Source of the DNA: Patescibacteria group bacterium
GTDB taxonomy: Bacteria > Patescibacteriota > Patescibacteriia > UBA9934 > GWF2-40-263
Assembly (NCBI GenBank): GCA_038065075.1
Contig: JBBTRQ010000001.1
Location: 2,823-66,822, forward strand
DNA length: 64,000 bases
Reading direction: 5' to 3'
In this document: positions 13,457 through 63,574 of the stretch, piece by piece
Numbering within the stretch: position 1 is the first letter of the stretch
Layout of the letters: every line of letters starts with the position of its first letter
Translations under genes and position numbers: made by a program
Notes under the pieces: generated by a model
What the model was told of the DNA's origin: nothing
Databases searched by the model: none
What the model saw: the letters and a program-made list of their open reading frames with translations, nothing else

Positions 13457-13466
13457 ATGTTTCTTG

Positions 13467-13524
13467 GTAGCCCCAGGCTTTAGCCTGGGTGCAGCCGCAG
13501 CCCAGGCTAAAGCCTGGGACTACC
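13467..13524. repeat. palindromic repeat family 2, two inverted copies (GGTAGCC-CCAGGC-TTTA-GCCTGG-GTGCAGC / mirror) in the lepB-hisS spacer, 11 nt upstream of the hisS start
   Basis: Perfect nested hairpins seen in sequence. Confidence 0.65.
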
Positions 13525-14570: not shown

Positions 14571-16614
14571 AAATGGTCATGCCCTCCTGATTCAATAGAC
14601 GATCAGCTCCTTCCTCCAGCTCCGCAAGAAGCTCCGGCGTCCACGCCCAATAGGCTGGCGCGGCAAAGTAGATGCGACGAACACCTGTCTCTTGAGCCAT
14701 TCGCAAGTAGGCTTCCTGAGAGGGCCCTTCATAGATCGTCGAGGTGTAGAGCCCGTAGAGTGATCCCCCTGTAGGGATAGCATACCAGAGAATCTCTTGA
14801 CCTTCATACCGATAGGTGTGGGCAAAACCAAACTCCTGAATAGCCGCCGCGCTCATGAGTTGGTGAGAAAGCACCAGATAAGGTTCGCCCTGACTCGCTT
14901 CCTCAATCAAATGGACTCCTTCGACATCGACAGCACTAACACCTGGAGAGAAGAACGGATACTTCAGGTTGTACTGCGGATAGGAAAAAAACCAAACGAC
15001 CACGACCAGAAGCGCCAGGAGAAACACCCTCCCAAACTCGAATCGGTGCAGACGTGCGAACACAACGACAAGGGGTGGAAGTGCAAACGTATAAAGAGCC
15101 TGCAGGAGACGAAGAGCGAACTCGAGCTGTTCATGCTGGATGATCCCTTCAAACGTGAACAGCGTCGACGCTCCCCAAATCGTCAGGAGGAGTCCAAGGG
15201 AAAACGTCAGGTGCCCTCGTGCGTTCGCGCGAACCGACGTACATGCGCATACAACGACCAACGATGTGAGGAACACCACGATGGGCAACCAATATCGGAA
15301 GTCATACAGGAAATCGAGTGCCCAGGGAATATACGGATACGGACCCCAGTAGGGACTCGCGAACAATCGGAAGAAGTCTGGAAGTTTTGTGACGAGCAGA
15401 CGGAGGCTACCACCGAGGTTCGTGTGCGATGCAATGGCTAGCATCGCGGGAACGGTGAGACCGACGAGCAGGACAGCGGCGGCGATGAACGCTATCCTCG
15501 CCAAAAAACTCTGCCGACCGACCACGAGGCGCTCGAAGAACAAAAAGACGAGAAGCGGCACAGCCAAGAGCGGATGGAACAGGACAGCGGCGACGAGTGC
15601 GAGCATGACCGACGCAAAACAAACTCGTGGTGCGCGAGCAACCCACGGATATGCCACCATAAAACCCAGGAATAGAACATACGTGACCGTGAACGGAACG
15701 GTGAATGTCGCCAGCATGAAGGGAATCGCAAGGATCCCGATCCACCACATGCGGGCCTGGCGTCGTGTAAGTCCCCACCCATGCTCGAACCCAAGGGTAG
15801 CCATGATTGGCAACCAAAGGCTCTCCACAACCGGCACGAGCCAGATGTCGATGAGCTTCACACTCAAGCCAGTCAGATGATGCAACGCGGCGACGATGAC
15901 GTACTGGCCGCTGTAGAGGAGTCGAACGGGCTCGACGACTCCTGTCTGCACGAGTGCCTCCTCAGCCGCGCGGTGCAGGAAGGGATCAAAGCCAAAGCCG
16001 ATGGCATACACGATCGCGGAAACGCTCAATGCGCTGAATGTCACAAACATCCATCCAATGAGCGGAACATCATCATCCCGCTCGCGTGCCGCAAGGATAG
16101 CCGAAACGATCGCGACGAACAGCAGAACAAAAGGCTCAGGACCAAACAGATTCCACGGGCTCACCAGAGGGATGTCTGTGCGCGCCAAGACCATGAGGCT
16201 AATGAGTAGCAGGCTTGCCAGAAGGCTGATGGCGCTGAAGAGCCAGGGTTGATTGCGTTCAATGCTCGGACACGGAAAAAAGCACATAACCCGACCTGAC
16301 CCCACGAGCAAACATCCGATGGTCACGAGCCAGAGGGTGAGCAGAATCATCCTCTCGTCCAAACGACCAACCGAGAGGTAAAGCCCGACCAAAAAAATCG
16401 TCGAGGTACCAAACACGGCCAGGGAACCAACAACAAGGCGCTCCCAAACATCCCTCCCAAAAACGGCCACGCGGCCAATCAAGACGACAACGCAACCAAA
16501 AAAGAGGAGGCTTCCAACCACCCCTATCCACCACATTCCAACACCCACGTTCATGCTCAAAATCACGCTGGCAACCAAAAGCACGATCCGTGGAGGATCC
16601 CAACGCATACTCAC
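14524..16614 (-). CDS. polytopic membrane protein (>=14 TM helices) with C-terminal extracytoplasmic domain; function unknown (glycosyltransferase-C-like topology)
   Basis: ORF track, hydrophobicity pattern. Confidence 0.5.
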   Translation of the reverse strand: MSMRWDPPRIVLLVASVILSMNVGVGMWWIGVVGSLLFFGCVVVLIGRVAVFGRDVWERLVVGSLAVFGTSTIFLVGLYLSVGRLDERMILLTLWLVTIGCLLVGSGRVMCFFPCPSIERNQPWLFSAISLLASLLLISLMVLARTDIPLVSPWNLFGPEPFVLLFVAIVSAILAARERDDDVPLIGWMFVTFSALSVSAIVYAIGFGFDPFLHRAAEEALVQTGVVEPVRLLYSGQYVIVAALHHLTGLSVKLIDIWLVPVVESLWLPIMATLGFEHGWGLTRRQARMWWIGILAIPFMLATFTVPFTVTYVLFLGFMVAYPWVARAPRVCFASVMLALVAAVLFHPLLAVPLLVFLFFERLVVGRQSFLARIAFIAAAVLLVGLTVPAMLAIASHTNLGGSLRLLVTKLPDFFRLFASPYWGPYPYIPWALDFLYDFRYWLPIVVFLTSLVVVCACTSVRANARGHLTFSLGLLLTIWGASTLFTFEGIIQHEQLEFALRLLQALYTFALPPLVVVFARLHRFEFGRVFLLALLVVVVWFFSYPQYNLKYPFFSPGVSAVDVEGVHLIEEASQGEPYLVLSHQLMSAAAIQEFGFAHTYRYEGQEILWYAIPTGGSLYGLYTSTIYEGPSQEAYLRMAQETGVRRIYFAAPAYWAWTPELLAELEEGADRLLNQEGMTIYEFTSFDIYDEDAGN

Positions 16615-24283: not shown

Positions 24284-25978
24284 ATGGTCGAGAAGCCACG
24301 CGTCAATTTACTCAAACGGCATCACACCCCGCGAGCGACGAAACGATCGCCCGCGCTTTTTTTTGGTCGCCGGTTGTTTATCACGTTAGCGGTGTTAGCG
24401 GCGGTCGGCATCATCTTCTCCTCTCAAGTAAGCTCGACCTCCGAAAGCTCCGGCTCCTTCCCTGACTTTTCTCTTTTCTCAGCCATCAAGCATCTTGTAT
24501 CTTCGGGAGACCGGGACCTTGAAGGTGAGGAAGAAGACCGCGTGAATTTCCTTCTCCTGGGCATCGGAGGTGAGGGACACGACGGTCCGCAACTGACTGA
24601 CACCATTATCTTTACGAGTTTTCGTCCTTCCGACGGCGCGGTCGCGATGATGTCGCTCCCCCGCGACATGACGGTTCCCATCCCTAATTATGGGTATCGC
24701 AAAGTGAACCATGCCAATGCCTACGGCGAGATGGACAATCCGGGTTCGGGGCCTGAACTCGCCTCGCAAGTCATCGGGGACGTCTTGGACGAAGAGATCA
24801 ACTATTACCTCCGCATAGACTTTAAGGGCTTTGAAGAATTTGTGGACGCCATCGGCGGCGTGGATGTGTACATCGAAAACGGATTCACCGATTCAAACTA
24901 TCCGATTGAAGGAAAAGAATACGACGAGTGCGGTGACGAACCGTCCGAAACATCCGACCTCTTGGTCGAATCTGACCCAGAAACGACAGAGGTAGCCGCA
25001 GGCTTTAGCCTGCGCGAGTCGCAGGAAGAACCCACCGAGCTCGCGCAGATTCTCGCGATCGACGAAGAGGAAGAAATCCTCGAAGAAGCCCTCGATGAAG
25101 AAAATCTCCCCGAGGTAGTGCCGGACTATTCCTGCCGCTTTGAGTCCATCACCTTTTATGAGGGCTGGACGCACATGGATGGAAGAACCGCGCTCAAGTT
25201 CGCCCGCTCACGACATGGGAACAGCGGTGATGGCTCGGACTTTGCTCGCAGTAAGCGCCAACAAAAAATCATCCTCGCCGTAAAAGACAAAGTGCTGTCG
25301 GCCTCGACCTTTTTGAACCCCTCACGCATCTCCAAGATGATGGACACGCTGAAAGCCAACATCTCGACCAACCTGGACGTGTGGGAGATTGTTCGACTGG
25401 CGGGTGAGTTCAAAAACGTGAGCGCTTCGGAAATCACCAACCATGTCATCGACGCGTCCGACGCTTCCCCGTTGTACGCGACGGTTCTCAACGGCGCGTA
25501 TGTGCTCCTCCCCAAGAACGACGATTGGGAACCGATTCAAAACATCGCTGAACATATTTTCACGCCGGACTCAGAACTCAACACCCAGTTTGCTGATGCC
25601 CCTGAACAGAAACCGAAATTCGTGAAAGTAGAAATCCAAAACGGCACAAACATCACGGGACTGGCGTTCACCACCTCGCAACTGTTGGACGGCCAGGGAT
25701 TTGACGTGGTGAAGGTCGGCAACGCCGTGAGCCGCGACTATGCCCATACGGTCATCTACGATCTCACCAACGGCCAGCGCTCAGATGAACTCAAGGCCTT
25801 GCGTGACTACCTGCAGGCGGACGTGACCTTGTCGGCAACCGGTTGGATGCTTTCCGGCGACGTCGTGCCACAGGAAATTGCATTCTCTTCGGACGATTAC
25901 GAACGATTAGCCACCCAAGAAAACATTGACTTTTTGGTCATTCTGGGAGAGTCTGCGAGCGGCCTGGCACGATACTAA
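24284..25978 (+). CDS. LytR-CpsA-Psr (LCP) family cell-wall polymer ligase with an acidic insertion and a C-terminal LytR_C domain
   Basis: N-terminal TM; LCP motifs (DTIIFTS.., MSLPRDM, YLRIDF.GF, ..KFARSRH.., RQQ); insert aa about 205-275 is Glu/Asp-rich and contains a repeat family 2 copy. Confidence 0.85.
   Translation: MVEKPRVNLLKRHHTPRATKRSPALFFGRRLFITLAVLAAVGIIFSSQVSSTSESSGSFPDFSLFSAIKHLVSSGDRDLEGEEEDRVNFLLLGIGGEGHDGPQLTDTIIFTSFRPSDGAVAMMSLPRDMTVPIPNYGYRKVNHANAYGEMDNPGSGPELASQVIGDVLDEEINYYLRIDFKGFEEFVDAIGGVDVYIENGFTDSNYPIEGKEYDECGDEPSETSDLLVESDPETTEVAAGFSLRESQEEPTELAQILAIDEEEEILEEALDEENLPEVVPDYSCRFESITFYEGWTHMDGRTALKFARSRHGNSGDGSDFARSKRQQKIILAVKDKVLSASTFLNPSRISKMMDTLKANISTNLDVWEIVRLAGEFKNVSASEITNHVIDASDASPLYATVLNGAYVLLPKNDDWEPIQNIAEHIFTPDSELNTQFADAPEQKPKFVKVEIQNGTNITGLAFTTSQLLDGQGFDVVKVGNAVSRDYAHTVIYDLTNGQRSDELKALRDYLQADVTLSATGWMLSGDVVPQEIAFSSDDYERLATQENIDFLVILGESASGLARY
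24991..25018. repeat. palindromic repeat family 2 copy (GGTAGCC-GCAGGC-TTTA-GCCTGC-GCGAG) in-frame inside the LCP gene (encodes ..EVAAGFSLRE..)
   Basis: Sequence identity of architecture with 8967-8994 and 13467-13524. Confidence 0.6.
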
Positions 25979-29629: not shown

Positions 29630-31969
29630 ATGGAAGCCATGTCGCACCATCTACTCATCGTCGAGTCACCGACGAAGGCAAAAACCATTTCAAAATACCT
29701 CGGGCAGGACTACAAAGTCCTTTCCTCTTTTGGTCACATCCGCGATCTGCCCAAGAGCAAACTTGGCGTGGATTTGGAGAACCATTTCGCCCCCACGTAC
29801 ACGATTCCCACCAAGAGCAAGAAAGCCGTGACAGAACTCAAAGCCGCGGCAAAGAACGCGGACATGATCTACCTAGCGACGGACGAAGACCGTGAAGGAG
29901 AGGCGATCGCCTGGCACATTCAGGAGGCGCTCAAGCTCAAACCAGAAAACACCCGCCGCATTACGTTTCATGAAATTACCCGCGCGGCCGTTGAGGACGC
30001 TGTGGCACACCCACGCGACATCGACCAGAATCTGGTGAACGCCCAGCAGGCGCGCCGCATTCTGGATCGTTTGGTCGGCTATGAGCTCTCTCCGTTCCTG
30101 TGGCAAAAAATCCGCTATGGTCTCTCGGCGGGACGTGTGCAGTCAGTCGCCATGCGGCTCATTGTCGAGCGCGAACGCGAGCGCCGGGCGTTCAACATCG
30201 AGGAGTACTGGACCGTCGACGCCGAATTCGAAAAATCCAACGTGACCTTCCCTGCGAAGCTTATTGAGGCTGACGGGAAAAAAGTCGACAAGCTCGAAAT
30301 CAAGACACAGGGCGATGCGAAGAGGCTCGTCGAAAAACTCGAGGGTGCTCCAGCAACGGTCATGGCCGTCGAGAAAAAGCTCGTGAAGAAAGCGCCGCCG
30401 ACACCGCTCACCACGTCGACCCTCCAGATCGACGGCAACACCAAATTGGGATTCAGTTCCAAACAAACGATGCGACTCGCGCAGGAGCTCTACGAAACCG
30501 GCCGCATCACCTACATGCGTACCGACTCGATGAACCTGGCGGAGAAATTCCTCGACGAAGCGCAGGCCTACATTCGCACGACCTTCGGCGAAAAGTATGC
30601 CGAAGGCGCACGACGATTCAAGACAAACAAAAAAGGCGCGCAGGAGGCGCACGAAGCGATCCGCCCAACAGAGGTCACGGCGACTCCGGATTCGTTGCGC
30701 TCCACCCTGGAGCCACGCGCCTGGAAACTCTACAATCTCATCTGGAGCCGCACCGTCGCCTCCCAGCTCCCAAGCGCGCAACTCAACCGCACCACGGTGG
30801 ACATTGAGGTCTCCCCCCCTGCCCGAGGGGGGGCTAGGGGGGGTGGGAGGGAGGTTGCTGTATTCCGTGCATCCGGCTCCTCGGTCGCGTTCCCGGGCTT
30901 CATGAAAGTCTACCAGTCGGCGAAAGAAAAAATTCTTCCCGAGCTCGCCAAGGGAGACACCGTCGATACCAAATCAATCATCCCCAACCAACATTTTACT
31001 GAGCCACCCGCACGCTATTCAGACGCAACTCTGGTCAAAGCCCTCGAGGAATTCGGCATCGGTCGCCCATCCACCTACGCCCCGACAATCTCCACGATCA
31101 TCGATCGCGGCTATGTGGAGCGTGACGAGAACAAGAAACTCGCGCCCACGGACATCGCTCTTATTGTCAACGACGTCCTGGTGAACCACTTCCCGCAGAT
31201 CGTCGGCTATGAGTTCACCGCGACGATGGAGAATACGCTCGATGAGATCGCGGAAGGAAAAGTCGAATGGGTTCCGACGCTGGAGGCATTCTACGGCCCG
31301 TTCCATCAAAATTTGGAAGCCAAGACAAAGGAACTCGATCGAGCCGACATCATGCCCGACCGAGTGCTGGGCACGGATCCAGAGAGCGGACTCCCCATCA
31401 CTCTCAAAACGGGTCGCTTCGGCGGATTCGTCCAGGTGGGTGAGTACACAAAGGAGGACAAAAAAGCCGGCAAACCAAAACCTAAGAGCGCCTCACTCCT
31501 CAAAGGCATGAACGTCGAGTCCGTGACGCTTGAGCAGGCCCTCGCCTGTCTCTCCCTTCCCCGCGACGTCGGCGTCAGCGAGAACGGCGAAAAAATCGTC
31601 GCGGCCGTCGGACGGTTTGGTCCGTATGTGAAAGTCGGCGACGTGTACGCGAGCATCAAGGAGCCACTGGATCCCCTGACCATCGATGAGGCAACGGCGC
31701 GAACACTTCTGAAGGAATCTGCCGAGCTCAAAAAGAAAATGGCCACACCCATTGCCGAATTCGGCAATGATCCGGTGAGCGGCGGAGCGATCCTGCTCAA
31801 ACATGGCCGCTTCGGTCCCTACCTCACCGACGGAACCACAAATGCGTCGCTTGGGAAGAAACGCGACCCGGCCGAAGTCACTCGCGAATCTGCCATCGAG
31901 ATCCTGGGAAAAAAACGGGCGATGGAAGCAAAGAACGGAAAGTCAAAATTCAGATCCAAGAAAAAGTAA
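29630..31969 (+). CDS. topA: DNA topoisomerase I with an in-frame Gly/Arg/Pro-rich insertion (SPPARGGARGGGR) derived from a palindromic repeat
   Basis: TOPRIM (SPTKAKTISKYLG), active-site region (TYMRTDS), C-terminal Zn-ribbon-like/GFG repeats. Confidence 0.9.
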   Translation: MEAMSHHLLIVESPTKAKTISKYLGQDYKVLSSFGHIRDLPKSKLGVDLENHFAPTYTIPTKSKKAVTELKAAAKNADMIYLATDEDREGEAIAWHIQEALKLKPENTRRITFHEITRAAVEDAVAHPRDIDQNLVNAQQARRILDRLVGYELSPFLWQKIRYGLSAGRVQSVAMRLIVERERERRAFNIEEYWTVDAEFEKSNVTFPAKLIEADGKKVDKLEIKTQGDAKRLVEKLEGAPATVMAVEKKLVKKAPPTPLTTSTLQIDGNTKLGFSSKQTMRLAQELYETGRITYMRTDSMNLAEKFLDEAQAYIRTTFGEKYAEGARRFKTNKKGAQEAHEAIRPTEVTATPDSLRSTLEPRAWKLYNLIWSRTVASQLPSAQLNRTTVDIEVSPPARGGARGGGREVAVFRASGSSVAFPGFMKVYQSAKEKILPELAKGDTVDTKSIIPNQHFTEPPARYSDATLVKALEEFGIGRPSTYAPTISTIIDRGYVERDENKKLAPTDIALIVNDVLVNHFPQIVGYEFTATMENTLDEIAEGKVEWVPTLEAFYGPFHQNLEAKTKELDRADIMPDRVLGTDPESGLPITLKTGRFGGFVQVGEYTKEDKKAGKPKPKSASLLKGMNVESVTLEQALACLSLPRDVGVSENGEKIVAAVGRFGPYVKVGDVYASIKEPLDPLTIDEATARTLLKESAELKKKMATPIAEFGNDPVSGGAILLKHGRFGPYLTDGTTNASLGKKRDPAEVTRESAIEILGKKRAMEAKNGKSKFRSKKK
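30811..30850. repeat. C7-N7-G7-CTA-G7 palindromic element inserted in-frame in topA
   Basis: ctccccccctgcccgagggggggctagggggggtgggaggg; near-identical architecture to 46659-46692 in asnS. Confidence 0.6.
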
Positions 31970-37677: not shown

Positions 37678-37764
37678 GCCGCGGTGGCGGAATTGGTAGA
37701 CGCGCAGGACTCAAAATCCTGTATGGGCAACCATGTGAGGGTTCGATTCCCTCCCGCGGCACCA
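37678..37764 (+). tRNA. tRNA-Leu (anticodon CAA), class II long variable arm
   Basis: GCCGCGGTGGCGGAATTGGTAGACGCGCAGGACTCAAAATCCTG..GAGGGTTCGATTCCCTCCCGCGGCACCA. Confidence 0.85.
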
Positions 37765-37901: not shown

Positions 37902-37978
37902 GGCTGGGTAGCTCAGTTGGTTAGAGCGTGGGACTCATAAGCCCGAGGTCGTGGGTTCAACTCCCACCCCAGCTACCA
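37902..37978 (+). tRNA. tRNA-Met elongator type (anticodon CAT; could be a lysidine-modified tRNA-Ile2)
   Basis: GGCTGGGTAGCTCAGTTGGTTAGAGC...CTCATAA...GGTTCAACTCCCACCCCAGCTACCA; G1-C72 paired. Confidence 0.8.
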
Positions 37979-38015: not shown

Positions 38016-38351
38016 TGCGGGGACCGGATTTGAACCGGTGACCTCTTGGTTATGCTTACCACTACAGTTTTCACTGCCTCTGAATTTCATCAGAGTTTGT
38101 AGTCTGGACTTTCCCTTGTCCGTCTTCATTGTGAAGGACGGACCCTACCATCAAGTCTCTACACTTTCCTCTCTTATGTAAGAAAGGCTTAGCTCGGGAT
38201 TACCACCATAGGAGGCTTCCCCGAATTTGATAGGATTCATCCGACCGTTTCTGGTCGGACAGCCCATTGCGATATCAGATGCCATCTACGTTGGTTTCGT
38301 TGCATCCGATCGAATCGAGCCAAGCGAGCTGCCAGGCTGCTCTACCCCGCG
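38012..38351 (-). tRNA. initiator tRNA-fMet (CAT) interrupted in the anticodon loop (after U33) by a 263-nt intron; exons 38318-38351 (34 nt) and 38012-38054 (43 nt incl. CCA)
   Basis: Exons concatenate to CGCGGGGTAGAGCAGCCTGGCAGCTCGCTTGGCT|CATAACCAAGAGGTCACCGGTTCAAATCCGGTCCCCGCAACCA, near-identical to E. coli tRNA-fMet; C1:A72 mismatch and A11:U24 initiator identity elements. Confidence 0.75.
38055..38317 (-). ncRNA. group I-like self-splicing intron (no ORF) within tRNA-fMet
   Basis: 5' exon ends in U, intron ends in G; P/Q/R-like elements (AAATTCGGGGAAGCC, AATCCCGAGC, GTCCAGACTACAAAC); P9-like hairpin ACTACAAACTCTGATGAAATTCAGAGG..CTGTAGTGG. Confidence 0.6.
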
Positions 38352-45894: not shown

Positions 45895-47259
45895 TTACGG
45901 AGTAATCCGATTAATCATCCTCGGGAACGGAATCGTCTCGCGCACGTGGTGCAATCCGCAGGTCCAGGCGACGATGCGCTCGAGTCCATAGCCGAAGCCG
46001 GAATGTGGAACCGAGCCGTAGCGGCGCAGGTCGAGGTACCAGTCAAAAGGTTTTGGATCGAGATTGTGTTCCGCAATGCGCTTCATAAGGGTCTCGTAGT
46101 CGTCCTCGCGCTGTGAGCCGCCGATGATCTCACCGTAGCCCTCTGGCGCGAGCAAATCGTTATTGAGTACGCGTGTGGGATCAGCTGGATCGCGCTTCAT
46201 GTAGAACGCCTTCACGGCCGCCGGATATTTCTCGACGAAGATCGGTGTCTCGTACTGCTGCGTGAGCCAGGTCTCGTCGTCGGCGCCCAAGTCGTCCATG
46301 TCCCCAATGTCACTTCCGTTGGCACGCAATTTCGCAATCGCCTCGGCGTGCGTGAGATGGACAAATGGCGCTTGGACTTTTTTGAGCGGCTCAACGTCGC
46401 GCTCCAGAACCTTCAGTTCGTACGCACAGTGCTCGAGAACGTCCGCGACGATGCGGCAGATGAGCGCCTCTTGAATCGCCATATTTCCTTCGTGCTCCAC
46501 AAACGCCGCTTCCGCGTCCATCATCCAGAACTCCGTGAGGTGACGACGTGTCTTAGATTTCTCCGCTCGGAACACCGGTCCAAAATCAAACGCTCGACCC
46601 AGACTCATGATCCCCGCCTCCAGATACAGCTGCCCTGACTGCGCGAGGTACGCCTTTCGGCCCCCCTCCTTTTCAAGGAGGGGCTGGGGGTGGTTATCAT
46701 CATCGACGAAGTAATCCATCTCAAACAGCTCGGTCGTGCCCTCACATGAGGTCGGTGTCAAAATCGGTGTGTCGAATTTTACAAATCCGTTTTCGTGGAA
46801 CCACTCGTAGGTGCTGGTGATAATTCGATCGCGGACACGCATCACCGCCCACTGGCTCTCGGCGCGCAACCAGAGGTGACGATTGTCGAGTAAGAAATCT
46901 GGGCCGTGCTCTTTCTTGCCCAATGGGTAATCTTCTTTTGGAATCTGGATCGGCTGAAAAAACGTGCCGGTCAGTTCAAACCCAGACGGTGAACGAGGCT
47001 CGGCTTTCACCACACCGCGCACCGTGACGGACGATTCAAGTTTCAATAAGTCCAATTGGTCCCATTGGTCCGATGGAATCTCGCTCTTGGAGAAAACCAC
47101 CTGCACGCGTCCACTCCCGTCGCGGAACTGTAAAAAGAAAATTTTTCCGCTGGAGCGGAAGTTGTAGCACCAGCCTTTAAGCTCGATCTCTTGACCGACG
47201 TGCTGACTGATTTCAGAAATCATTTTGTTGTGCATAGATTGCTTCGCTGTCGCTCGCAA
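45895..47259 (-). CDS. asnS: asparagine--tRNA ligase (class IIb) with an in-frame repeat-derived insertion (..DDDNHPQPLLEKEGG..)
   Basis: OB-fold N-terminus, KAYLAQSGQLYLE, RHLTEFWMMDAE, FPR C-terminus; the Asn versus Asp call rests on the SGQL/EFWM motifs. Confidence 0.75.
   Translation of the reverse strand: MRATAKQSMHNKMISEISQHVGQEIELKGWCYNFRSSGKIFFLQFRDGSGRVQVVFSKSEIPSDQWDQLDLLKLESSVTVRGVVKAEPRSPSGFELTGTFFQPIQIPKEDYPLGKKEHGPDFLLDNRHLWLRAESQWAVMRVRDRIITSTYEWFHENGFVKFDTPILTPTSCEGTTELFEMDYFVDDDNHPQPLLEKEGGRKAYLAQSGQLYLEAGIMSLGRAFDFGPVFRAEKSKTRRHLTEFWMMDAEAAFVEHEGNMAIQEALICRIVADVLEHCAYELKVLERDVEPLKKVQAPFVHLTHAEAIAKLRANGSDIGDMDDLGADDETWLTQQYETPIFVEKYPAAVKAFYMKRDPADPTRVLNNDLLAPEGYGEIIGGSQREDDYETLMKRIAEHNLDPKPFDWYLDLRRYGSVPHSGFGYGLERIVAWTCGLHHVRETIPFPRMINRITP
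46659..46692. repeat. C-run/N7/G-run/CTG/G5 palindromic element inserted in-frame in asnS
   Basis: ggcccccctccttttcaaggaggggctgggggtgg. Confidence 0.6.
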
Positions 47260-51783: not shown

Positions 51784-51804
51784 AATCCCCCATGAGGGGG
51801 ACTT
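51782..51804. terminator. palindromic repeat family 1 hairpin (aaaaTCCCCCatgaGGGGGActt) between convergent genes
   Basis: Seen in sequence. Confidence 0.55.
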
Positions 51805-55673: not shown

Positions 55674-55713
55674 CAAACAAACATCCCCCTCGTGTGAGGG
55701 GGATGTTTGTTTG
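55674..55713. repeat. palindromic repeat family 1 copy with a 16-bp perfect stem (caaacaaacaTCCCCCtcgtgtgaGGGGGAtgtttgtttg)
   Basis: Seen in sequence. Confidence 0.6.
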
Positions 55714-61680: not shown

Positions 61681-62265
61681 ATGCACGTTCGTCTTCTCAC
61701 CTCCATCCCCTCCCTCCATGACGCCATCCTCTCCGCCTCGGAGGGGTTCGGCCAGCCCATCGACCAGGCATTGAGTCTGGACGTGGCACAACACCTGGAC
61801 GCCTGCGGCTTCGGCTTCCAGTTCCTGACCGACGAGAACGAGATCGCCGGCTTCACTCTGTTCAAGCACTACGGCTCACTGCTGTACGGCGGCGGCATGA
61901 TGATCCGCCCCGCCTTCCAGAAGTCGGGTCTCGTCCGGCAGGGCATCCTGCTCGCGCAGGAACACACCCACGCCCGCCACTTCGCCTTCCGCACCCAGTC
62001 GCCGCGGATGTGGTCCGCCGGCCGTCGCGTGACCCGGCTGTGGTCGCCCACGCCCGAGCAGGGATTCTTCCACCCCGAGCTCGACGAGGTGCGCTCCATC
62101 GCGGCTGACCTCCTGCACATCAAGCCGACGGTGACGCGCGCGGTGTTCGACCGCCCGCTCTACGGGCAGAAGCCCACGCACCTGAATCCCGCCATCCAGA
62201 CGTGGTGGGACTCGATGTGCGACTTCGACAAAGGCGACATGGTTCTGTGTGTCGGCGCGTTCTAA
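61681..62265 (+). CDS. hypothetical protein, possibly GNAT-fold acyltransferase; GC3 very high
   Basis: ORF track; weak GNAT motif A (RPAFQKSGL). Confidence 0.3.
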   Translation: MHVRLLTSIPSLHDAILSASEGFGQPIDQALSLDVAQHLDACGFGFQFLTDENEIAGFTLFKHYGSLLYGGGMMIRPAFQKSGLVRQGILLAQEHTHARHFAFRTQSPRMWSAGRRVTRLWSPTPEQGFFHPELDEVRSIAADLLHIKPTVTRAVFDRPLYGQKPTHLNPAIQTWWDSMCDFDKGDMVLCVGAF

Positions 62266-63046: not shown

Positions 63047-63070
63047 AAAAATCCCCCGCGAGGGGGATCT
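63047..63070. terminator. palindromic repeat family 1 hairpin (aaaaaTCCCCCgcgaGGGGGAtct) between convergent genes
   Basis: Seen in sequence. Confidence 0.55.
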
Positions 63071-63545: not shown

Positions 63546-63574
63546 AAAAATCCCCCCGCGAGGGGGTTTTAAAA
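63546..63574. terminator. palindromic repeat family 1 hairpin (aaaaaTCCCCCCgcgaGGGGGtttt) immediately after the stop of the 63569..63832(-) gene
   Basis: Seen in sequence. Confidence 0.55.

Follow-up and report, generated by a model that had tools for sequence, protein, structure and literature searches.

Holder et al. (2015; PMC4666352) distinguish four classes of intrastrand triplex motif, among which class II runs 5′ pyrimidine, purine, reverse-Hoogsteen 3′, and report that G/C-rich class II motifs are over-represented in bacteria, notably enterobacteria and cyanobacteria. The same study shows that the E. coli motif TMECO (earlier named BoxC or PIT elements) forms a stable triplex in vitro as single-stranded DNA, that this triplex was not detected in vivo, and that TMECO is associated with no promoter, terminator or gene class and linked to no transposon, phage or plasmid (PMC4666352). 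Inverted pairs were noted, the loci are unusually variable between strains, the 23 copies of E. coli K-12 are always intergenic, and coding or in-frame copies are nowhere mentioned (PMC4666352); the motif class is also treated by Hoyne & Maher (2000, 2002), as cited there. Here we describe two elements of 32 and 33 nt, one in topA and one in asnS, in 64,000 nt of a Patescibacteria group bacterium genome (contig JBBTRQ010000001.1, positions 2,823 to 66,822; hereafter the window), whose sequences point to the same structural class. In contrast to the intergenic copies of E. coli, both lie inside open reading frames (ORFs) of essential genes, with strong homology on both sides.

Architecture of the topA and asnS elements

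The first element lies in topA (29630-31969, + strand), which encodes a type IA DNA topoisomerase of 779 aa whose homologues carry the domains Toprim, Topoisom_bac and Toprim_C_rpt. The window protein matches a protein from a Patescibacteria metagenome-assembled genome (MAG) at 100% identity and its nine closest relatives at 85-89%; of these nine, three bear the name Candidatus Uhrbacteria TopA. A preliminary description of this DNA had reported a GC-rich palindromic in-frame insert in the gene, and we found the sequence as described at 30813-30844: C7 (30813-30819), TGCCCGA (30820-30826), G7 (30827-30833), CTA (30834-30836) and a second G7 (30837-30843), followed by TGGGAGGGAGG and, after its terminal T, by GGGAGGGAGG. 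The insert is translated as S395-PPARGGARGGGRE-V409. The second element (46663-46695) lies in asnS (45895-47259, − strand; asparaginyl-tRNA synthetase, 454 aa), where it encodes HPQPLLEKEGG.

The elements had been read as simple hairpins, a reading that is not supported, since the "CTR, G-run" beyond the hairpin provides a third arm, in which each base mirrors one of the purine arm. Both elements thus comprise, on one strand, a pyrimidine arm, a loop, a purine arm, a 3-nt loop and a reverse-Hoogsteen arm. In topA (30813-30844; stem, loop 1 and loop 2 of 8/5/3 nt), the pyrimidine (Y) arm CCCCCCCT (30813-30820) is followed on the + strand by loop 1, GCCCG (30821-30825), by the purine (R) arm AGGGGGGG (30826-30833), which is the Watson-Crick partner of the Y arm, by loop 2, CTA (30834-30836; its counterpart in E. 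coli TMECO type A is TTA), and by the reverse-Hoogsteen (RH) arm GGGGGGGT (30837-30844), which mirrors the R arm in seven G.G-C triplets and one T.A-T triplet. In asnS (46663-46695; 9/3/3 nt), likewise on the + strand, the order is Y arm CCCCTCCTT (46663-46671), loop 1 TTC (46672-46674), R arm AAGGAGGGG (46675-46683), loop 2 CTG (46684-46686) and RH arm GGGGTGGTT (46687-46695), with nine perfect triplets. The topA element continues into a G-rich extension, (G)GGAGGGAGG (30845-30854, + strand), which DNA comparison with the orthologous copies L129 and L002 identifies as part of a lineage-specific 11-nt addition and which supplies two further G-tracts in a quadruplex-type pattern.

We compared both elements with the ITxF definition of class II (stem of 6-15 nt with ≤1 mismatch, loops of 1-6 nt, and only G.G-C, A.A-T and T.A-T triplets; PMC4666352). 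Both show the Y-R-RH block order 5′ to 3′ on the + strand, Watson-Crick complementary Y and R arms with stems of 8 and 9 and 0 mismatches, allowed triplets throughout (8/8 in topA, 9/9 in asnS), and loops of 5/3 (topA) and 3/3 (asnS). A finder for perfect Y-R-RH motifs returned exactly 2 sites in the window and 0 in 200 dinucleotide-preserving shuffles, by which a chance origin of the motifs was ruled out. Homopolymer statistics likewise single out the two elements as carrying the window's only long G-runs of this kind, and their predicted hairpin energies as DNA are −14.1 kcal/mol (topA) and −10.0 kcal/mol (asnS).

A covariance model (R1) built from 15 copies, all from other organisms and none from the window, matched both elements over their full length (asnS, 58.1 bits, E = 5.5e-21; topA, 28.1 bits, E = 9.5e-9), so that the asnS element of related architecture mentioned in the preliminary description exists and is a true relative. 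Nothing else in the window was convincing under R1; weak matches at 61698-61751 and 16514-16537 were rejected as ordinary coding sequence missing the full architecture. No Rfam family covers the element (the whole window was scanned at gathering thresholds, together with 18 loci, and permissive scans of both copy types gave noise), and literature searches for the encoded peptides and DNA strings returned no match.

In single-stranded form, the first two arms would pair as a hairpin, and the third could align antiparallel with the purine arm, held by G.G-C, T.A-T and A.A-T triplets of the reverse-Hoogsteen type. By sequence, both elements are perfect class II purine-motif intrastrand triplex motifs of the BoxC/PIT/TM structural class; the whole explanation developed below, including a derived in-frame passenger insertion, we hold to be quite probable.

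The window also holds C5-loop-G5 hairpins between an A-run and a T-run (51786-51801, 55685-55702, 63053-63066 and 63552-63566), which resemble the first two arms of the triplex elements and have no third arm. These apparently intergenic hairpins are probably the genome's bidirectional intrinsic terminators.

Insertion history in topA and asnS

Most of 120 aligned TopA homologues have, between "..VDIxV" and "xxFRAxGS", a turn of 2-4 residues (KN, KQ, EK etc.), and solved TopA structures show a gap at the insert position. The suggestion that the insert is lineage-specific was borne out by this ortholog alignment, in which the insert appears as derived; the extra residues are likewise there, at about 13 relative to close relatives and not the ~10 first estimated. 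Empty alleles were found in L004, L128 and L130 (QD) and in L211 (KN), the orthologous element is present in L002/L003 and L129, and TopA of L006 has an unrelated S/T-rich insert at the same site. Across the ten closest TopA sequences, indels occur at only five internal sites, and of these only the element site is multi-state (7 states in 10 sequences).

The three orthologous topA copies retain both arms and have divergent loops, the 7-nt loop being TTTCCAA in L002 and TTCCCAA in L129. Relative to these two, the window copy has one additional C in the C-run plus the 11-nt G-rich addition, and its element is read in another frame (SPPARGGARGGGRE in the window, SPLPKGGLGG in L129/L002), with the frame restored downstream. 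A frame shift with the arms kept implies that the peptide is unconstrained and that it is the DNA arms that are kept. We excluded an assembly error, which had been raised as a possible explanation, because a second assembly record (ENA NODE_192, L001) contains the identical topA gene and three further, independent assemblies (L002, NCBI; L003, Logan; L129, JGI) hold orthologous copies built in the same way.

Other inserts were seen in TopA of relatives. The gene of one close relative (L211 10001-12316; P0008) carries at aa 197 an in-frame 30-nt perfect palindrome, TCCGCCAAAGGCGGA/TCCGCCTTTGGCGGA (SAKGGSAFGG), which occupies the same TopA loop as a triplex element in the distant lineage L158, and another insert, DPSTGLGP, is found at aa 650 of P0010.

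For asparaginyl-tRNA synthetase, the ancestral state is DYF-D[LMV]G-KAYL, and the aligned Thermus enzyme leaves a gap opposite the window residues VDDDNHPQPLLEKEG. An empty asnS allele (L212) reads GAT GAT GAC AAC directly followed by GGG CAA AAA; the window reads GAT GAT GAT AAC, 30 nt, then GGC CGA AAG. The difference between filled and empty alleles is therefore a clean 30 nt with no target duplication. The element recurs at this codon in the asnS genes of L208 and L209, which are only 70-71% identical to the window gene at the DNA level. The 33-nt unit of L208 is 32/33 identical to that of the window, with its one change in loop 2 and with the flanking synonymous sites scrambled; the L209 element has two C-to-T changes in the pyrimidine arm, and the corresponding position in L210 is taken by a degenerate element of the poly-C type. 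The closest AsnS relatives (88-90% protein identity) have other sequences at the insert site, and the loop takes ten states among ten sequences. The same residues in unrelated lineages had been named as a sign of an ancestral loop; the same 33 nt do recur in relatives only 71% identical, and since they are not shared by the closest relatives, this distribution favors a DNA-level element over an ancestral protein loop. Many Uhrbacteria have another recurrent insert, (M/L)GKGEPE.V..., in this asnS loop (P0131, P0136, P0137, P0140, P0143, P0145, P0146, P0148, P0153, P0155 and others).

Together, these sequence comparisons show that both insertions are derived, lineage-specific and in-frame, at beta-turns, where alignment with solved structures places them. 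The indel hot-spot pattern at both sites matches the published link of such elements to local instability.

A cross-phylum family with a mirrored third arm

A search with a pattern for the hairpin only (CCCYCCTTTYCAAGGRGGG) returned at least 120 loci in one-genome-per-species GTDB contigs, where a rough estimate of the chance expectation across the collection is a few tens. Among the matches listed are Cyanobacteria, Burkholderiales, Hymenobacter, Planctomycetes, Acidobacteria, Kapaibacteria, Armatimonadota, Patescibacteria and others, from about 15 phyla. Flanks that the pattern does not set are nonetheless conserved: the 5′ edge of the family is sharp at (T)C/CCCTCC (83 copies; the slash marks the edge), and GGG(G)TGGT occurs within 80 nt downstream in 52 of the 83, compared with 1.3% of control segments. 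In the alignment the family tail is GGGTGGTT, beyond which sequence is random, and the linker before the tail is either 4-8 nt or an entire additional GC hairpin with covariation. Some pattern matches arose by coding coincidence and were rejected; L072, for example, has no third arm, and its host is a protein which we take to be sigma-70, judging from its PLLSKEG...AKRIE sequence alone.

Variants with other stems, found when related loci were searched with R1, carry matching other tails. In each the tail is the mirror of the purine arm, in which G stays G and A becomes T or A; in the canonical set, the Y arm CCCCTCCTT and R arm AAGGAGGGG are followed by the tail GGGGTGGTT, which is the RH arm of the asnS element. 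This mirror rule is the code of an antiparallel purine-motif triplex. It accounts for the element ending right after TT (nine triplets for nine base pairs) and allows the linker to be three bases or an entire hairpin. We assayed the rule on 206 oriented pyrimidine/purine hairpins outside the selection of the search pattern, with the tail sought within 50 nt, and found a perfect mirror tail in 84 (0.84% of random segments) and one with ≤1 mismatch in 124 (8.1% of random segments). More than 20 different arm sequences follow it, among them AAGGGGAGGG, which is followed by GGGTGGGGTA, and GAGAGGGG, which is followed by GGGGTGAG. A direct repeat of the G arm (AGGGGGGGCT/AGGGGGGGTG) was rejected, as it gave 44 perfect matches versus 84 for the mirror, and the 44 mostly have near-symmetric arms. 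Mimicry of Shine-Dalgarno and anti-Shine-Dalgarno sequences (CCUCC/GGAGG) was dropped because poly-C/poly-G variants share the same architecture.

Two observations concern the setting of family copies. Eight cyanobacterial loci (L013, L074, L084, L087, L089, L093, L118 and L124) hold poly-C type units inside larger composite repeats, typically with a further hairpin (AAATCCCCC..GGGGGACTTTGA) upstream and a conserved TTGTGTGTAYACGGTAG downstream. In addition, 2.9 million IMG/VR viral contigs yielded 7 matches to the hairpin pattern (L213-L219), of which five or six also show a proper third arm. Carriage by phages between phyla was not adopted as an explanation, since 7 viral matches demonstrate presence and not a vector.

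In-frame copies also occur in other proteins, and we accepted them where Pfam domains lie on both sides of, or around, the insert. The hosts include DnaG of another Uhrbacterium (L125), UDP-glucose dehydrogenase (ugd; L041), Prevotella UxuA (L049), a protein of the FGE-sulfatase type (L081), a Ser/Thr kinase that also has an AAA domain (L106), a peptidase M56 (L109), DprA (L137) and, in a distant CPR (candidate phyla radiation) lineage, a second TopA site (L158). DnaE of a Caulobacterales MAG carries an in-frame inverted pair of 33-nt units that splits the HhH domain match (L101 3891-3985), and a nonribosomal peptide synthetase of Microcoleus carries an inverted pair of 29-nt units between its methyltransferase and carrier domains (L096 5579-5680). 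A second inverted pair of 33-nt units was seen at L101 7031-7125, in a 491-codon open frame. With the two hosts in the window, about 14 host proteins are validated by domain matches or homology, or at least 16 copies when the orthologous topA and asnS copies are included. Both orientations and several frames are represented, and the encoded peptides are unrelated (PLLEKEG, PSLKRRG, PSFSRRG, PPFQGG, PLLFKEG, SPLEKGG), from which it follows that the conserved entity is the DNA.

The geometry of the unit offers a reason for its tolerance in ORFs. Three equal arms and 3-nt loops give 30 or 33 nt, and among 149 perfect motifs in 1.97 Mb the lengths peak at 30 and 33 nt, with 95 of the 149 divisible by 3. 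All-pyrimidine or all-purine arms make stop codons impossible on the strand as written. Length in multiples of three together with stop-free arms would explain how the unit is tolerated inside genes. Copies that sit in-frame in essential genes, in CPR bacteria as in other phyla, seem to be undescribed, as does this geometric reason.

Mechanism, alternative explanations and known systems

We propose that the unit would arrive whole, through a copying process presumably involving single-stranded DNA. Its survival in ORFs would come from its geometry (30 or 33 nt with stop-free arms), and selection would retain only insertions in tolerant surface loops, where the translated product would be a passenger loop rich in Pro, Gly and Arg. 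Purine-motif triplexes cannot form in RNA (PMC4666352). At the DNA level, the unit would make its site prone to slippage and rearrangement. We infer that the element is a passenger in topA and asnS; we see no sign that it serves either gene.

Several points weigh against this explanation. We found no transposase, target-site duplication or other mobility signature, and the work in E. coli found no tie to mobile elements (PMC4666352). The elements are scarce here, with 2 copies in 64 kb and few across 1.03 Mb of related loci, so that spread, if any, is rare. Triplex folding is read from sequence alone, no protection from dimethyl sulfate was found in vivo, and double-stranded DNA prevails over the triplex in vitro (PMC4666352). 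At most 28 of the 149 perfect motifs lie deep in long open frames, an upper bound because it is based on open frames; this is far below the expectation from coding density, and most in-gene insertions are presumably lost. The sister of the window topA is an empty allele, and the asnS insert is shared with distant relatives but not with close ones, which can be read either as recurrent insertion or as one old insertion with many losses; a neighbor-joining tree of the ten closest TopA sequences is almost a star, poorly resolved, and settles neither gains nor losses. Finally, synonymous-site conservation of the element could mean a host function and not recent arrival.

Among the alternatives, we considered that the G-runs matter as a quadruplex competing with the hairpin, and not as a triplex. 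The literature terms the same repeats quadruplex-hairpin-duplex switches, archaeal analogues show an equilibrium between triplex and quadruplex, and the topA copy has four G-tracts (G7 CTA G7 T GGG A GGG). The last two of these, however, belong to the lineage-specific addition and are missing from L002 and L129, such that the topA copy fits the canonical motif (G3+ N1-7)x4 solely through its extension, while in the asnS copy and in most of the family just two tracts reach three G. Moreover, a T or A in the third arm always stands opposite an A in the purine arm, which a triplex predicts and a quadruplex does not. We therefore regard a quadruplex switch as very unlikely.

Also improbable, to a similarly high degree, is a non-B DNA device useful to the host, in which a triplex or hairpin on the non-template strand, sensitive to supercoiling or R-loops, would modulate transcription or replication of topA, whose product controls supercoiling. 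The triplex-forming strand in topA is indeed the coding (non-template) strand, the arms are conserved at synonymous sites, and triplex elements occur at two topA sites in separate lineages (window/L002/L129, and L158) as well as in dprA, dnaG and dnaE. Yet this count is biased, as many of the loci are centered on topA; the asnS copy is oriented oppositely relative to transcription, the validated ORF copies are mixed (about 7 with the gene orientation, 4 against), close relatives do without the element, and published tests found no promoter, terminator or regulatory effect (PMC4666352).

A palindromic element mobilized by a transposase, of the kind represented by Rickettsia palindromic elements (RPEs), miniature inverted-repeat transposable elements or repetitive extragenic palindromes (REPs), in which the hairpin alone is relevant, would account for in-frame colonization of ORFs, for presence/absence polymorphism, for copies in two genes and for the inverted pairs of other genomes, which are reminiscent of REPIN doublets. 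However, the unit is 30-44 nt and not 100-150 bp, no GTAG/CGTC tag stands beside the hairpin in either window copy, terminal inverted repeats and target duplications are absent, the element is present in many phyla, and its third arm is conserved as strongly as the hairpin, making this explanation highly improbable. An adaptive Gly/Arg-rich nucleic-acid-binding protein loop with an incidental DNA palindrome, suggested by an RGG-like peptide in a DNA-binding enzyme and by mycobacterial TopA, whose loop is likewise longer at this position, is extremely improbable, since the same DNA unit yields unrelated peptides by frame and orientation (PLLEKEG, PSLKRRG, PPFQGG and others), the window topA loop is frame-shifted relative to its orthologous copies, and the turn in close relatives has 2 residues.

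Intrastrand triplex repeats have been on record since the 1990s, and neither a role nor an in-vivo sign that the triplex matters has been found. Copies in essential ORFs are natural experiments that separate protein-level from DNA-level constraint. The topA frame shift with its arms kept, and the 32/33 identity of the asnS unit in genes of 71% identity, make selection on the triplex fold in cells directly testable. Such inserts also account for unusual loops rich in Pro, Gly and Arg, and for locally hypervariable stretches, in conserved proteins of CPR bacteria and other phyla, and are not to be taken as functional protein features or assembly errors. Read at their broadest, intrastrand triplex units would be pan-bacterial, structure-defined mobile DNA and ready-made in-frame modules that seed surface loops in essential proteins, with three-arm conservation at synonymous sites as the first in-vivo evidence of selection on the fold; we hold this interpretation to be unlikely. 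In a stronger form of it, recurrence in topA (two sites), dnaG, dnaE and dprA would mean that the units are targeted to sites where DNA is single-stranded and under supercoiling stress, or function there.

Elsewhere in the window, Rfam returned a group I intron match at 38078-38281 (− strand), which scores 56 bits against a gathering threshold of 50 and follows a tRNA gene cluster (37678-37761, 37902-37975), lying about 100 nt downstream.

How, then, do the elements relate to known small repeats? RPEs are about 100-150 bp, known only from Rickettsia, and simple long imperfect palindromes not known to have a third arm. A relationship in sequence was neither expected nor found, and Rfam scans gave no significant match. 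The likeness to them drawn in the preliminary description holds for in-frame insertion into conserved protein genes, for extra translated loops and for lineage-specific presence; membership in that family does not, as the units are 30-44 nt and spread over about 15 phyla, the window unit itself being 32-44 nt in a Candidatus Uhrbacteria host. REP and REPIN sequences, which RAYT transposases mobilize (PMC3116915, PMC3733652), are similarly structure-defined hairpin repeats of 20-40 nt, often in inverted doublets. REPs, however, have a GTAG/CGTC tag and are species-specific and extragenic, whereas the triplex elements are untagged, have a third arm and are near-identical across phyla; the flanks in the window are GAGGTCT...GGTTGCT (topA) and TTCGGCC...ATCATC (asnS). 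Palindromes with a GTAG tag were seen elsewhere in the window, at 13466-13518 (GGTAGC CCCAGGC TTTA GCCTGGG plus an inverted partner, just upstream of hisS) and at 24991-25014 (GGTAGC CGCAGGC TTTA GCCTGCG, in-frame in the LytR_cpsA_psr ORF 24284-25978; peptide EVAAGFSLRE). These look REP-like and would be a second kind of in-frame mini-palindrome.

The small dispersed repeats of cyanobacteria (Elhai et al. 2008, Genome Res 18:1484) are reportedly 21-27 nt long, mobile-like and nested, and are said to interrupt genes occasionally; they are not known to have a triplex architecture. The cyanobacterial CCCCCC...GGGGGG CTA GGGGGGATC copies of the present family may overlap such repeats. Recurrent G-rich/C-rich repeats of Methanomicrobiaceae form an antiparallel triplex in solution, in equilibrium with a quadruplex, and share with our elements a G-rich third strand and a GC hairpin; they differ in having the C-tract 3′ of the G-tracts (the opposite block order) and in being archaeal and intergenic (PMC8044849).

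The closest likeness is to BoxC/PIT/TMECO. Shared are the order on one strand of Y arm, loop of 3-6, R arm, 3-nt loop and RH arm, the triplet rules, stems of 8-9 nt, a total of 32-37 nt, a second loop of the TTA/CTA type, inverted pairs, association with locally variable sequence, and abundance in cyanobacteria. The TMECO example CCCTCTCCC TTGA GGGAGAGGG TTA GGGTGAGGG has the layout and the kind of second loop seen in the window elements. The TMECO pattern, CCCTCNCCC N3-6 GGGNGAGGG N3 GGGNGAGGG, differs from the window arms CCCCCCCT and CCCCTCCTT, the window host is a Candidatus Uhrbacteria genome with few copies, and some copies of the family, unlike TMECO, are found on viral contigs. By their arm sequences, then, the window elements fall inside the structural class of TMECO and outside its sequence family.

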